From positions 33,170,001-33,234,000 of the forward strand of contig OX597833.1 in the NCBI GenBank assembly GCA_951406725.2: a stretch of 64,000 nucleotides of DNA, written 5' to 3'. Of the stretch, positions 8,879 through 58,533 are shown one piece after another. The position numbers and the translations under genes are program-made. Position 1 is the first letter of the stretch. Each line of letters opens with the position of its first letter. The DNA comes from Octopus vulgaris (Eukaryota). The notes beneath the pieces are model-generated. The model worked only from the letters and a program-made list of their open reading frames with translations, ran no database searches and had not been told where the DNA came from.

Positions 8879-8915
8879 CTAAAATTTTCGTTGCGTCTTG
8901 CAACCTTTTCAATAG
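8879..8915 (-). ncRNA. Minimal type-I hammerhead-like motif, U3-A8 core
   Basis: Minus strand: CTA TTGAAAA G GTTGC-AAGAC-GCAAC GAAA AT T T TAG; helix I only 3 bp. Confidence 0.5.
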
Positions 8916-9488
8916 TTGTCGACTCTGTCCGTTATCCGAGTTGCGTTCTTTTTGTTTGTTAGTGCGCATGTGTGTGGGTCAGTGTGTGTGCACATACACA
9001 TGTATTTATGTATGCATGAATGTAAGTGTGTGTACCTCTGTCTCCTTGTGTGCGCATATCTGAGTGTGTCTGTGTATGTGGGTGGGGGGCTTGTAACTAT
9101 GTTCTGTGTCTATGTATGGATGTGTATCTCTGTATGTGTGGATGCATGTCGCCATATGTGTCCTTGTGTGAAGTGAAGTGTGTGTGTGTGTGTGTATTGT
9201 CATGCACACACAAGGAGACAGAGGTATACATATACACACATGCAAACACACACACACAAATACACAAGCACATGAATATGCAGAATGCCTACATACTAAT
9301 GTACACTCATACATACATAAATACACACGTACACACACATACATACAGGCATACATGCACACATACATGCATGCATGCATACATACACACACACACACAT
9401 ACATATGTATGTGCACACACACTGACCCACGCACATGCGCACAAACAAACAAAAAGAACGCAGCTCGGATAATGGACAGAGTCAATAA

Positions 9489-9525
9489 CTATTGAAAAGG
9501 TTGCGAGACGCAACGAAAATTTTAG
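9489..9525 (+). ncRNA. Minimal type-I hammerhead-like motif, U3-A8 core (inverted copy)
   Basis: CTA TTGAAAA G GTTGC-GAGAC-GCAAC GAAA AT T T TAG. Confidence 0.5.
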
Positions 9526-10495
9526 AAAAATAAATAAGTAAATGAATGGAAACTTTACCGGTGAGTGTGTTAAATTACAATGCACTAAAAGAGAATGACT
9601 ATTCCCTGACGAAATATGTGTGTGTGTGTGTATGTGTGTGTGTGTGTGTGTGTGTGTGTGTGTGTGTGTGTGTGTGTGTGTGTGTGTGTAATCATACAAA
9701 AAATATATACATAATTATATACAAGGTAAGAATTCAGATTCATTTTCTTCTAGTGCATTTCTAATCTATAAAATTACGTAGCAAAAGAAAGTATATATAG
9801 TGAATGAAAAAAAACGGTGCTCTTCCATTTATTTTGCACTGAGTCACACAAATTTTTTCCTTTTCAGCATCACCTTCGTAAATGCAGAAGACCGTGATTG
9901 GTCTACTAGATACTTATACATAATTAATGTAACATTCAATATAAATTTAATAAATGAATGTATTTATAAATCTTTCACAAACAGTGTAAAATCATATATT
10001 TATACTTTATATTCTGCGACGATACACTCTTGAAGGTTCTATATATGTGCACACACCCGCGCGTGTGTGGTTGTACAATTTATGATACAAAATAAATATA
10101 TAGATAAAAGGATTTCTCGTAAATATCTTAAAAGTTTGCATTTGCACTCAATATTTTTCAGAGTCTGGCTGATGGTGGACAGTATTTACCGGAAGCAATA
10201 ATACATGTGTAGTAATAAATTAAAGTAACATTTGAGAGTATAGTTGAAATCAATCGAAAATAAAAGTATCTGTTCCTTGGACAACGGTGACGACGGTGAT
10301 AAAGGTGACATTGCCACTTCAAAATATATAAACAGGGAAAGGCAACGAAACAACTAGTAGTTAATATGCTGAATCATTTCAGTGTGATACAAGGGAATGC
10401 CTAAAGGAAACCGAAGACTACTGAAACTTTGGTCTCTACTGACACCCAATGTATATACGAGCGCGTCTGGGTTTATATACATTATATAAATATCG

Positions 10496-10693
10496 ATTTC
10501 AAATTTTGGTACAAGGTCAGCAATTTCGGGGAGGAGTAAGTCGATTACATAGACCCTAGTGATCTACTGGTACTTATTTTGTCGACCCCTAAACGATAAA
10601 ATGTAAAGTCGACTACGGCGTAATTAGAACTCAGAACGTTAAGAGGTCGAAATGTCGCTAATCATTTTTCCTGGCATGCCAGCTGGCTGCCTT
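10496..10693 (-). mobile_element. Degenerate tRNA-derived SINE (Nin-domain-like family)
   Basis: Diverged reverse-complement match to the SINE units at 28399-29165. Confidence 0.6.
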
Positions 10694-11201
10694 GCATTAT
10701 ATAAACATTACATTACACACACGTATGTGTGTGTATACATGTGTATAAATATATTTATATGTATGTAAATATATATATGTATTGAGCCATCAACTATGCA
10801 TTTCGCCCCATATCCTGCTACACACACACACATGTATGTATGTGTGTGTATGTATATATATATATATATATATATATATATATATATATACACATACATA
10901 CACACACACACACACACATATATATATATATATATATATATATATATATATATATATATATAGCTATATATATATATATATATATATATATATACATATA
11001 TATACATAGCTATATATATATATATATAACATAAGGGGGATCAGCCATCTGAATGTGGCTAGGGTCAGGGCGGGGTGGTGGGGGTGTTACTGATGCATTT
11101 AGCCCCAGGCGAACATCAACGTCACCAGAAGAGCTGACACCATCTCGGTGTCCTTGCCAGCCTGCAAAGGGAGATCAGCCTCCCCGAAGATACGGATACT
11201 A

Positions 11202-11244
11202 CACACGGACCGATTTCGAGGTTATTGCCTCTTGTCAACGTATG
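11202..11244 (-). ncRNA. Minimal type-I hammerhead ribozyme, U3-A8 core
   Basis: CATACG TTGACAA GAGG-CAATAA-CCTC GAAA TCGG TC CGTGTG. Confidence 0.75.
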
Positions 11245-11440
11245 GTAAGCACCGCTCTTCGTTGAGGGACTCTCTCTACAGGCTGGATATATAGATTTTC
11301 ACAGTAACCACAGTCACTGGCGTAGAAAATCCGTTCGAAAACAATAATAAATCTCTGAGCGAGATATAAACAGTAACTGCTCTACAACATAAGGGGGATC
11401 AGCCATCTGAATGTGGCTAGGGTCAGGGCGGGGTGGTTAC

Positions 11441-11483
11441 CATACGTTGACAAGAGGCAATAACCTCGAAACCGGTCCGTGTG
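11441..11483 (+). ncRNA. Minimal type-I hammerhead ribozyme, U3-A8 core, GUC site
   Basis: CATACG TTGACAA GAGG-CAATAA-CCTC GAAA CCGG TC CGTGTG; 6-bp helix I, 4-bp helix II, palindromic ACCGGT helix III. Confidence 0.8.
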
Positions 11484-56350: not shown

Positions 56351-56449
56351 AGAGACAAAAAATAAGAATTACCTGAAAATGCCTGAGGGACGTTACTACT
56401 GGTCTGTAATCTTACATGTTATAAATATATTTAATTCTTTCTGTTTTAG

Positions 56450-56839
56450 GTCCGGCGTTGTCATACCGACAGTAACCGGAAACTAACTCTAATGCTGCTT
56501 ACTCTCTCCTTCATGTTACTGTTGACAACACTTCCGCTGGCAGTCAGCTTAATTCTAGCTCATTTCTGGAACTTCAGCATGTCACGAGATTTGGCTTGGG
56601 CGGCGAAATACCAGCTGACCAAGACGATAGCTGAATTAATGATGTATCTCAACCATTCCATGAATTTTATATTGTATTGCACAATGGGACGTAAATTTCG
56701 TCAACAAGTTGTGCGGATGTTCTGTAATAAAAACAACATGACAAAAGGTTTATCAGATCATACACATCACATATACTGCTCCAGAAACTGTTCTCCACAG
56801 ATAAACACTTCACAGCAATGTCCCGACACAGAAATATAA
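56450..56839 (+). CDS. GPCR coding exon 2 (ICL3 end, TM6, TM7, C-tail)
   Basis: Acceptor TTTCTGTTTTAG at 56449, in frame: VRRCHTDSNRKLTLMLLTLSFMLLLTTLP...NHSMNFILYCTMGRKFR; spliced product 408 aa. Confidence 0.92.
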   Translation, partial: VRRCHTDSNRKLTLMLLTLSFMLLLTTLPLAVSLILAHFWNFSMSRDLAWAAKYQLTKTIAELMMYLNHSMNFILYCTMGRKFRQQVVRMFCNKNNMTKGLSDHTHHIYCSRNCSPQINTSQQCPDTEI

Positions 56840-57248
56840 TGCCCGACAGAGAGTTAGTTGTGAATCTCTTCAAACTCTTCTGATACATTGTGTATGCATA
56901 TTTCTGTATGCGTATATAAGCCATCACATATCCAAGAAATCAAAAGTTATCTACTGATATATATATATATATACATATATATATATTTATATATATATAT
57001 ATATATATAAATTTATATACATATATATATAAATATAGTATATATATATATATATATATGTGTGTGTGTGTATATATATATATATATATATATATATATA
57101 TATATATATATATATATATATATATATATATATATATATATATATATATATATATATATATATATATATATATAGGAAAATGTGTTGTTGAAAATGCACT
57201 TAAATTTCAAAAGCTCGTAAATGTTTAAAATACATTTATTTGCATATA

Positions 57249-57290
57249 TACCAAACTAGTTTCAACAATATCTTTTGTTTATCAATGGTA
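57249..57290 (-). ncRNA. Minimal hammerhead-like motif, U3-A8 core
   Basis: TACCA TTGATAA ACAA-AAGATA-TTGT T GAAA CTAG T T TGGTA. Confidence 0.6.
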
Positions 57291-57637
57291 AAAGTGTAAA
57301 ATTAGAAAAACATCGTTATAAGTTTCAATGTTGACAAAGGGGAAATTACTCAGTCGCTTCCGAAATCTCCCCTTTTTTTTGCTATTTTAATTCTCACACG
57401 TTTTTTTTTTTTCCAGTATGACTTATCGACCACCACTAAAATTAATGAACCTTATACATTCTAACATATTAATATACAGTTTTAATTTCAAACTTACACC
57501 TGTTTTGAACATGATAATTTATCAACATTTAAACATTTTAATTTAACAGCATTGAAACAATTCAGTTTGTCAACATTGAAACATTTTGATTTGTCAACAT
57601 TGAAACTTATAACGGTGTTTTTCTAATTTTACACTTT

Positions 57638-57679
57638 TACCATTGATAAACAAAAGATATTGTTGAAACTAGTTTGGTA
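57638..57679 (+). ncRNA. Minimal hammerhead-like motif, U3-A8 core (inverted arm)
   Basis: Same sequence as 57249-57290; palindromic ACTAGT. Confidence 0.6.
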
Positions 57680-57965
57680 TATATGCAAATAAATGTATTT
57701 TAAACATTTACGAGGTTTTGAAATTTAAGTGCATTTTCAACAACACATTTTCCTATATATATATGTATATATATATACATATATATATATAACTATAAAT
57801 ATATATATATATATATATATATATATATATATATATATATATATATATATATATATATATACATATATATATATATATACATATATATATACATATATAT
57901 ATATAACTATAAATATATATATATATATATATATATATATATATATATATATATATATATATATA

Positions 57966-58533
57966 TAAGGGTGTCTGAGAGACACAACCATGCCGAAATA
58001 GCAGTCAAATCCCTGGCTCTAAAAACCACCTTAAATGTTCATATCGCACCACGAGATAAGACAGAGGGACAGAATAGACTAGCAAAAATATATTACTGAA
58101 TAATTCAAGATCCTGGATTTCTAGCTTTGCTTCAAATAAGCTCTGCCTTCATCAGTTGAATATATCAGATGGGCATATAAATACAAATATATATATATAT
58201 ACAGAACACATACGAACGTCCATACATACATATATATGCACGTATGTACAAGGCCAGTTCAAATTGCCCGCCAACCACCTCATAAGCACGATATGGTCAG
58301 AATAAACACCGCATTGAATATAGTGACGAATTATATAAATTTATAAATAAGGATAATATCGATATTATCAAGTGGCCAGCATGGGAATAAATACCATACA
58401 AAGGTAATAATTTTTTACAACTATAAATAAGGCTGCCTGAGAGACACCACCATGCTGAAATAGCAGTCAAATTCCTGACTCTAAAAACCACCTTAAATGT
58501 TCATATCGCACCACGAGATAAGACAGAGGGACA
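57966..58533 (-). mobile_element. Hammerhead-bearing pLTR or retrozyme-like unit (462 bp, 106-bp redundancy)
   Basis: 57966-58071 repeats at 58428-58533; begins directly after (TA)n. Confidence 0.75.
58103..58161 (-). ncRNA. Type-I hammerhead motif, C3-G8 core, AUC site
   Basis: ATTCAA CTGATGA ...AGCTT-loop-AAGCT.. GAAA TCCAGGA TC TTGAAT; base of helix II imperfect. Confidence 0.7.

Follow-up and report, generated by a model that had tools for sequence, protein, structure and literature searches.

Predicted minimal hammerhead ribozymes of Penelope-like and non-coding retrozyme-like repeats in a 64-kb window of the Octopus vulgaris genome

The window, that is, the whole stretch of DNA analysed here, comprises 64 kb of the Octopus vulgaris genome (assembly GCA_951406725.2, contig OX597833.1, positions 33,170,001 to 33,234,000, forward strand; positions below are counted from its first letter). 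It has 38% GC and many microsatellites, and belongs to an assembly of 2.8 Gb in 227 contigs. Twelve hammerhead motifs in seven families, here named A to G, had been proposed in it from the letters alone, and all twelve have been found at their places. They are non-random hammerhead folds, predicted to be self-cutting, and are almost certainly associated with Penelope elements. Each of them possesses the complete type-I core (N3-U4-G5-A6-N7-N8-A9, G12-A13-A14, A15.1-U16.1, H17). Seven of the twelve differ from C3-G8, each through a complementary pair, and positions 3 and 8 are complementary in every motif, as had been claimed. The families and their carriers are represented by the following features (N3 gives the first position of the core).

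7426..8600, minus strand: broken 5' half of the family B Penelope-like reverse transcriptase (RT) open reading frame (ORF), downstream of the 8912 ribozyme
8879..8915, minus strand: family B minimal hammerhead, N3 at 8912 (TTGAAAA), U3-A8, 3-bp helix I, AAUU helix III, predicted cut after 8882
9489..9525, plus strand: family B hammerhead of the inverted arm, N3 at 9492 (TTGAAAA), predicted cut after 9522
11025..11702, unstranded: family A insertion, 359-nt non-coding monomer, head-to-head arms in (TA)n
11202..11244, minus strand: family A hammerhead, N3 at 11238 (TTGACAA), U3-A8, helix III ATCGGT, GUC site at 11208
11441..11483, plus strand: family A hammerhead, N3 at 11447 (TTGACAA), U3-A8, helix III ACCGGT, GUC site at 11477
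22144..24101, plus strand: non-autonomous Helitron-like element of 1,958 bp, 5' TC, 3' hairpin and CTAG, then T; carries the family C pair
23280..23602, unstranded: family C head-to-head insertion, 260-bp palindrome and ~64-nt tail
23358..23408, minus strand: family C hammerhead, N3 at 23401 (GTGAACA), G3-C8, helix III AATATT, G.G mismatch in helix II
29306..29351, minus strand: family D hammerhead, N3 at 29346 (CTGATGA), C3-G8, helix III ACAT (family ACGT)
29548..30009, minus strand: GIY-YIG endonuclease (EN) end of a Penelope-like ORF, ~205 nt upstream of the family D ribozyme, 66% identity to the RT+EN protein P0003 (E 4e-61)
42147..42192, minus strand: family D hammerhead, N3 at 42187 (CTGATGA), left arm of the head-to-head pair 42069-42601
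42494..42539, plus strand: family D hammerhead, N3 at 42499 (CTGATGA), right arm, helix III ACGT, helix I mismatch
53713..54412, minus strand: family E insertion with a non-coding monomer of 535 nt, partly tandem (53713-53875 recurs at 54250-54412)
54002..54083, minus strand: family E hammerhead, N3 at 54076 (CTGAGGA), C3-G8, long helix II, helix III ACAATTGT, GUC site at 54009
57175..57754, unstranded: family F head-to-head pair from the 3' end of a coding Penelope-like element; both arms stop at (TA)n, ~111 nt beyond the core
57249..57290, minus strand: family F hammerhead, N3 at 57285 (TTGATAA), U3-A8, helix III ACTAGT
57638..57679, plus strand: family F hammerhead, N3 at 57643 (TTGATAA), U3-A8, helix III ACTAGT
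57960..58533, minus strand: family G insertion with a unit of 462 nt that lacks a long ORF, partly tandem (57960-58071 recurs at 58422-58533)
58103..58161, minus strand: family G hammerhead, N3 at 58155 (CTGATGA), C3-G8, helix III ATCCAGGAT, AUC site at 58109

Helices I and II have at least 3 bp beside the core in ten of the twelve copies; helix I at 42499 and helix II at 23401 are damaged, and the majorities of their families are intact. A strict descriptor was composed of helix I (at least 3 bp), N-UGA-N-N-A, helix II (at least 3 bp), GAA, a palindromic A15.1..U16.1 and H17, positions 3 and 8 being left free. In the window it gives nine matches, eight of them (eight of the twelve motifs) with a Watson-Crick 3-8 pair, versus 0.18 +/- 0.43 (maximum 2) in 60 local dinucleotide shuffles; one non-complementary match is observed versus 0.57. 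The other four motifs fail through copy-specific damage: helix III at 29346 and 42187 reads ACAT and is not palindromic, 42499 retains only a 2-bp helix I at the core, and 23401 has the G.G mismatch within helix II. Since the descriptor was composed after the motifs were known, it was rerun on a blind sample of 40 stretches of 10 kb (400 kb), placed at round coordinates and chosen before any pattern search. Here 36 matches were obtained, 29 of them Watson-Crick (18 C-G, 8 U-A, 3 G-C, 0 A-U), versus 0-5 (mean 1.9) in 12 shuffles of the sample, with seven non-complementary matches versus a mean of 4.3. Eight core-mutant descriptors, with one core base altered in each, gave 0-6 Watson-Crick matches in the same 400 kb. 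The comparison with shuffled sequence, which had been named as a check, shows the motifs to be non-random in the window and in the blind sample.

Helix III is palindromic in general, as had been described; the exceptions are ACAT at 29346 and 42187, and ATCGGT at 11238. The palindrome given for family D, AACGTT, is in fact ACGT, the longer reading taking in A14 and N17. When the content of helix III was left free and helices I and II were made stronger, palindromes were found in 15/15 Watson-Crick matches versus 1/6 of the others, a test whose scoring, to its disadvantage, favours palindromes by design. At 213 merged loci outside the window, 211 matches form 37 clusters, with a Watson-Crick pair in 15/15 multi-site and 15/22 single-site clusters; the clusters share descent, so the 15/15 must be discounted as not being 15 independent events. 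The 15 clusters found at two or more sites have C-G (8), U-A (6) or G-C (1) at 3-8; three of the four Watson-Crick pairs are seen, and there is no A3-U8 cluster among the 37. The preliminary candidate numbers, 456-2171, are not copy numbers (for family A, 163 exact ribozyme copies versus 2171 candidates). An Rfam scan of the window gave 128 matches at E<=10, none of them to a hammerhead family, so that the motifs are assigned to no Rfam family, and MAFFT did not align the cores across families. Two further candidates, 55012 and 16829 on the plus strand, were rejected as being without usable helices.

The covariation of the 3-8 pair can be followed within and between families. Family A consists of two subfamilies whose 359-nt monomers are 89% identical, one with U3-A8 and one with C3-G8; further paired changes between them are visible by eye in the closing stem. 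An exact genome pattern with positions 3 and 8 free finds 163 copies of family A, 37 of them C3-G8, and among the 100 matches listed there are 24 C-G, 76 U-A and no mismatched pairs. The exact pattern of family C finds 4,468 copies; the 100 matches listed include 98 G3-C8, one G-G and one G-U, with at least six recurring loop-II variants. These exact patterns fix most of the core and test only positions 3, 8 and loop II, which weakens them as evidence. Between families, the endonucleases of B and C (the latter from locus L270) share 41-48% identity (E<=1e-17); at E<=0.01 that of C matches neither D nor F. The ribozymes of B and C can be aligned, both have A7, U17 and an extra G after A9, and their helices II differ by a compensated pair (GTTGC/GCAAC versus GTCGC/GCGAC). 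Judged by these sequences, B and C belong to related elements, and U3-A8 in B against G3-C8 in C is thus a swap between relatives. The covariation that had been proposed is therefore seen twice; the description of the seven families as unrelated stands in so far as blastn between representatives gives only 18-27-nt matches, and fails for B and C. In a metagenome scan with the G3-C8 motif, none of 35 loci folded as a hammerhead.

It could be argued that the motifs are chance matches in AT-rich repeats, amplified together with host repeats. Non-complementary matches do occur at background level, about 2 of the 29 blind matches are expected to be false, and the family C copy of the window did spread as a Helitron passenger. 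This explanation is refuted, and its probability is close to nil: the 15-fold excess over shuffles is confined to complementary 3-8 pairs and the true core, family A has undergone a compensatory double change, and the helix-II mismatch of the window copy of family C is found in only 42 of the 4,468 exact copies. Copy number alone is no proof of an intact 3-8 pair, because a 76-nt satellite (L120, G000:C25:19154336-19157476) with ~18 family D ribozyme units, many with a mismatched A3-G8, has multiplied a mismatched core; this core makes up 11 of 31 matches of the D cluster and weighs against the explanation favoured below.

The carriers of B, C, D and F have been identified as Penelope-like. 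Sequences of endonuclease-bearing (EN+) ORFs, in which an RT is followed by a C-terminal GIY-YIG domain, accompany B, D and F at several loci and C at one. P0003 matches Pfam RVT_1 at 1e-11; the RT motifs of P0020 and P0022 were recognised by eye, with an RVT_1 E-value of 0.02 for P0022. Pfam matched 0/5 Penelope-like fragments among 13 window ORFs, and these were identified by homology instead. Most family copies are too short to reach the ORF. For family D, the ribozyme lies downstream of a GIY-YIG ORF end in L116 as well, again at ~205 nt. RT-thumb or EN fragments lie upstream of family F on the same strand in 4/30 loci (L134, L135, L150, L159), and GIY-YIG fragments lie 670-1100 nt upstream of family B in 4/30 loci (L163, L169, L180, L184). 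Four loci of family C were taken to look for a neighbouring ORF, and in one of them, L270, an ORF for EN lies 1,000 nt upstream of the ribozyme; RT and GIY-YIG motifs are visible in the homologues P0020 and P0022. The CX2-5CxxC linker, associated with the Neptune clade in the available passages of PMC8557442, is present in B, C and F and absent from D, which hints at Neptune for the three.

Downstream of the 8912 ribozyme, the ORF half at 7426..8600 is 37-59% identical to P0020 (tblastn, E 2e-39). The same order recurs in L180, L276, L279 and L280, where the ORF starts ~490 nt downstream of the ribozyme. A predicted intron of ~420 nt (GTGAGT ... AG) lies in family B between ribozyme and ORF start and contains 3' end sites (8843-8862; L180 1550-2050). 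The 8912 arm is without it, the deletion being off the predicted splice sites by a few bases. The deleted stretch of ~425 nt terminates at a TGA microhomology instead of the predicted splice sites, and derivation of this arm from a spliced RNA was therefore rejected. Near the break of the ORF, a DUF7083 fragment (6549-7118, plus strand) probably belongs to a long terminal repeat (LTR) retrotransposon. Other Penelope-like ORF remnants, at 59027-59587 (minus strand; N-terminal part, by eye) and 62702-63838 (plus strand; RT and GIY-YIG), have no strict hammerhead adjacent.

The family C pair of the window is carried by the Helitron-like element 22144-24101, classed by end rules that we take to hold for Helitrons: 5' TC, 3' hairpin and CTAG, position before T, and tandem copies. 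Its left end is found in 29/30 and its right end in 28/30 loci. The plus-strand arm has lost its core (GCTAACA), and a read-through transcript of the pair is predicted to form a single long hairpin (-202 kcal/mol). Given this hairpin and the rare helix-II mismatch, the copy is a damaged passenger. The Helitron-like element is young and shares two 19-20-nt stretches with the 3' region of family A.

Families A, E and G are non-coding. The arms of family A in the window (11025-11437 minus, 11432-11702 plus) end at +213 and +255, leaving a 42-nt tail on one side; the monomer has 49% GC, and helix I continues into a long closing stem. A and E are arranged as tandem monomers with one type-I hammerhead each, as in non-LTR retrozymes. 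Same-strand spacings are 353-361 in 12/13 cases for A and 534-536 in 10/10 for E, and the longest Met ORFs are 70 aa and 46 aa, respectively. Family G has no tandem ribozymes, being single in 14/14 loci (14 of 40 matches taken, 1.3 kb each). Family A is covered by contigs of four runs, three presumed to be RNA and one unlabelled; these contigs are uninformative on strand, ends, level and circles. The A tail at 11343-11387 (45 nt) has a contig depth far above the rest of A in 4/4 runs, with loose ends on both sides. This depth suggests that another repeat carries the tail, which is absent from the non-A loci compared, and offers a lead towards the partner of A. Beside family E, a 5S rRNA-like sequence (54583-54701, minus strand; Rfam 85.9 bits) adjoins a repeat (54413-54581) that abuts the insertion.

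The mode of insertion has been deduced from neighbouring copies and from the positions of their ends. Opposite-strand neighbours within 2.5 kb were counted for families A, B, D, E and F, de-duplicated and with window loci removed; C was left out because most of its loci represent one Helitron family. Of 40 such neighbours, 39 are divergent (head-to-head) and one is convergent. The 3' ends fall at two sites: for A at +209-214 (23) or +252-257 (13) of 37 arms, for E at +227-236 (17) or +358-362 (19) of 39 arms, arms that run off a locus being dropped and the A query having already been extended to +213, and for F at +109-112 (14) or +149-155 (13) of 30 loci, ~41 nt apart. The resulting tails measure ~41-43 nt (A, F), ~64 nt (C) and ~126 nt (E). 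The 5' ends of A and E are scattered around the monomer, with flanks that are mostly (TA)n, and some arms exceed one monomer (up to ~2 kb), which fits multimeric or circular templates. Three features of Penelope insertion are thus present: (i) a 5'-truncated inverted copy joined at its 5' end, (ii) a one-sided tail, and (iii) a microsatellite or AT-rich target. The inverted truncated copy and one-sided tail are described for Penelope elements in passages of PMC8557442, and two internal RT start sites with AT-rich cutting on both strands for PAc, the Poseidon element of Anolis, in those of PMC11167929. Together with the RT/GIY-YIG linkage, these features agree with the Penelope-like and retrozyme-like carriers in a motif-dense genome that had been proposed. 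Penelope proteins are the likely means by which A, E and G move.

An eighth head-to-head pair in (TA)n lies at 11735-12115 (cores at 11922, minus, and 11960, plus). It has CUGAAGA, a 3-bp stem and GAAU instead of GAAA; a GAAA stands 24 nt upstream of the core in this family, which is present in 6/40 blind 10-kb stretches. Its anatomy is of the Penelope type, and its hammerhead half-core agrees with none of the descriptors. The consensus fold, itself uninformative, lends no support to a fold of type II or type III.

The following cycle is proposed. Paired as dimers by the palindromic helix III, and perhaps helped by protein, the ribozymes would cut tandem transcripts into RNA of unit length, which for A and E would be circular. 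A Penelope protein would bind the RNA just 3' of the ribozyme, and its endonuclease would cut AT-rich DNA. Of two fixed start sites for reverse transcription, ~100-360 nt downstream of the ribozyme, one would be used, and copying would proceed back across the ribozyme, which would be uncut or re-ligated. Joined 5'-to-5', two truncated cDNAs would yield the inverted head-to-head pairs, and selection on the core would act on source elements. We consider it probable that the motifs are minimal type-I hammerheads, in Penelope-like terminal repeats (B, C, D and F) and in non-coding tandem repeats (A, E and G), predicted to cut tandem transcripts as palindrome-paired dimers. Cleavage competence in the source elements is expected with similar confidence; that the dimer is the main route of cleavage is favoured more cautiously. 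The twelve window copies themselves are likely inert end-products. All four close pairs are opposite-strand, and inverted pairs are unable to dimerise in cis because one arm is antisense, contrary to the cis dimers suggested for them.

Several points weigh against this cycle. Self-cleavage of the motifs is a prediction from sequence. Each inserted copy spans the cut site, so that its template was uncut or re-ligated. The palindromes of B and C are AU-only (self-duplex +2.2 and -0.2 kcal/mol) and their position 17 is U; the link of family C to an ORF is known at a single locus; and an autonomous partner of A, E and G was not found, the coding families giving only 18-27-nt matches. According to passages of PMC11167929, the Anolis Penelope hammerhead cut only with protein, insertion in vitro was unimpaired by hammerhead mutations, and none of the RNA-seq reads had its end at the cut site; passages of PMC4209133 report low activity even for dimers.

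The protein dependence of the Anolis hammerhead, which cleaves only after the element protein is added (PMC11167929, passages), suits a different role for the ribozyme in the same elements, namely a protein-assisted monomer, or one acting late in the cycle, with the palindrome as minimal closure and the dimer not the working form. The coding families B, C and F indeed have no same-strand neighbour within 2.5 kb, and E and G could, by their sequence, close 2-3 bp of helix III alone. Palindromy is nevertheless retained over many helices III that differ in sequence and measure 4-12 nt, a pattern for which the pairing of dimers is a direct explanation, and A and E are found as same-strand tandems; we regard the monomeric form as unlikely. 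Somewhat less likely still is a fold retained for some purpose other than catalysis (binding of protein, packaging of RNA or termination) with negligible cleavage in vivo. The insertion of Anolis catalytic mutants in vitro and the lack of reads ending at the cut site (PMC11167929, same passages) would agree with it, as would the spread of Naiad elements without canonical hammerheads (PMC8557442, in part) and the weak helices and U17 of B and C. Against it, the 3-8 pair covaries and belongs to the active conformation (passages of PMC3088659), and the signal is lost when G5, G12, U4, A6 or A13 is altered in the descriptor. The covariation and the loss of signal point to selection on catalytic geometry.

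With eight motifs per 64 kb against 29 per 400 kb in the blind sample (P=0.13), or five sites in the window by site (P=0.28), the window is average for the genome and not a hotspot. The blind sample contains 21 sites (12 C-G, 6 U-A, 3 G-C), arrays and pairs being counted once, by hand; sites are a safer unit than motifs because one stretch (L061) happened to contain a 7-copy array. The extrapolated load of the genome is 0.8-2.1e5 hammerhead sites. Motifs other than C3-G8 make up only 11/29 motifs and 9/21 sites, so that the statement that a CUGANGA search would largely miss this population went too far. It is conceivable, though on balance we would not expect it, that the genome uses three Watson-Crick 3-8 pairs including a selected, cleavage-competent G3-C8 lineage (4,468 copies, with a U3-A8 relative) at ~1e5 sites in dozens of Penelope-driven families, and that the signature of A and E means that Penelope proteins mobilise animal retrozymes.

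Two further observations concern the surroundings. Coding stretches resembling G-protein-coupled receptors (GPCRs; 7tm_1, Srw) at 50105-51097 and 56450-56839 (plus strand) perhaps form one gene. If so, family E would lie antisense in an intron. The family F pair begins ~340 nt past the stop, where it is a possible double-stranded hairpin of the 3' untranslated region. At 28450-28933, 41029-41374 and 51199-51684 there are 184-bp tandem units of a repeat that we presume to be like a short interspersed nuclear element (SINE).

The motifs share with the minimal hammerheads (min-HHR) of Cervera and De la Pena 2014 (PMC4209133, as far as its available parts go) the type-I topology, short helix I, extra base after A9, palindromic helix III, pseudo-LTR location, opposite-strand pairs 100-700 bp apart and many families per genome. 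The same parts report ~1,300 U3-A8 matches in Schistosoma and the cores UUGAUAA and UUGAAAA. In contrast to them, the helix III palindromes here reach 6-12 nt, a 4,468-copy G3-C8 family was not found in the text and supplement parts searched, and the load of ~1e5 sites compares with 2,000-9,000 per genome, the descriptors being different. Retrozymes and their proposed Penelope origin are treated in passages of PMC7229834, PMC7761336, PMC6765202, PMC6155905, PMC3884650 and bioRxiv 10.64898/2026.07.22.740005. As in non-LTR retrozymes (PMC7229834; Li et al. 2026, bioRxiv 10.64898/2026.07.22.740005; passages of both), each unit of the A and E tandems is non-coding and contains a single type-I hammerhead. 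Unlike the elements described there, E (535 nt) exceeds the quoted 150-450 nt, and A has 49% GC. The double 3' end and head-to-head junctions of A and E were not found in the retrozyme passages ('tail' has 0 matches in those of bioRxiv 10.64898/2026.07.22.740005).

PAc (Frangieh et al. 2024, PMC11167929, passages) likewise has two adjacent RT starts that give a tail, an AT-rich target and a hammerhead just upstream. Its G3-C8 pair is an engineered mutant (C3G/G8C) that partly restores cleavage, whereas here it is the natural state of a family; the passages of PMC3884650 also hold G3-C8 as an engineered variant. Natural C3-G8 to U3-A8 covariation was described by Perreault et al. 2011 (PMC3088659), in whose available passages natural G3-C8 is absent. 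A natural G3-C8 family was not found in the literature searched, Lunse 2017, the likeliest place, being outside that search. That literature also held no hammerheads in octopus ('ribozyme' and 'hammerhead' have 0 occurrences in the passages of PMC13282606). The Penelope association and the U3-A8 cores are thus already published, and no new class of ribozyme or element is described here. New, so far as checked, are the G3-C8 lineage with its U3-A8 relative, the swap within family A, the Penelope signature on retrozymes, and the scale.

For this genome, the results mean that counts based on CUGANGA only are ~40% too low. If G3-C8 cleaves, a third core is needed in standard descriptors. The young, near-identical families and their natural swaps (the A1/A2 subfamilies, U3-A8 versus C3-G8; B/C, U3-A8 versus G3-C8) make the dimer and protein-assist models directly testable, and the proposal that animal retrozymes stem from Penelope elements gains support from the insertion signature of A and E.

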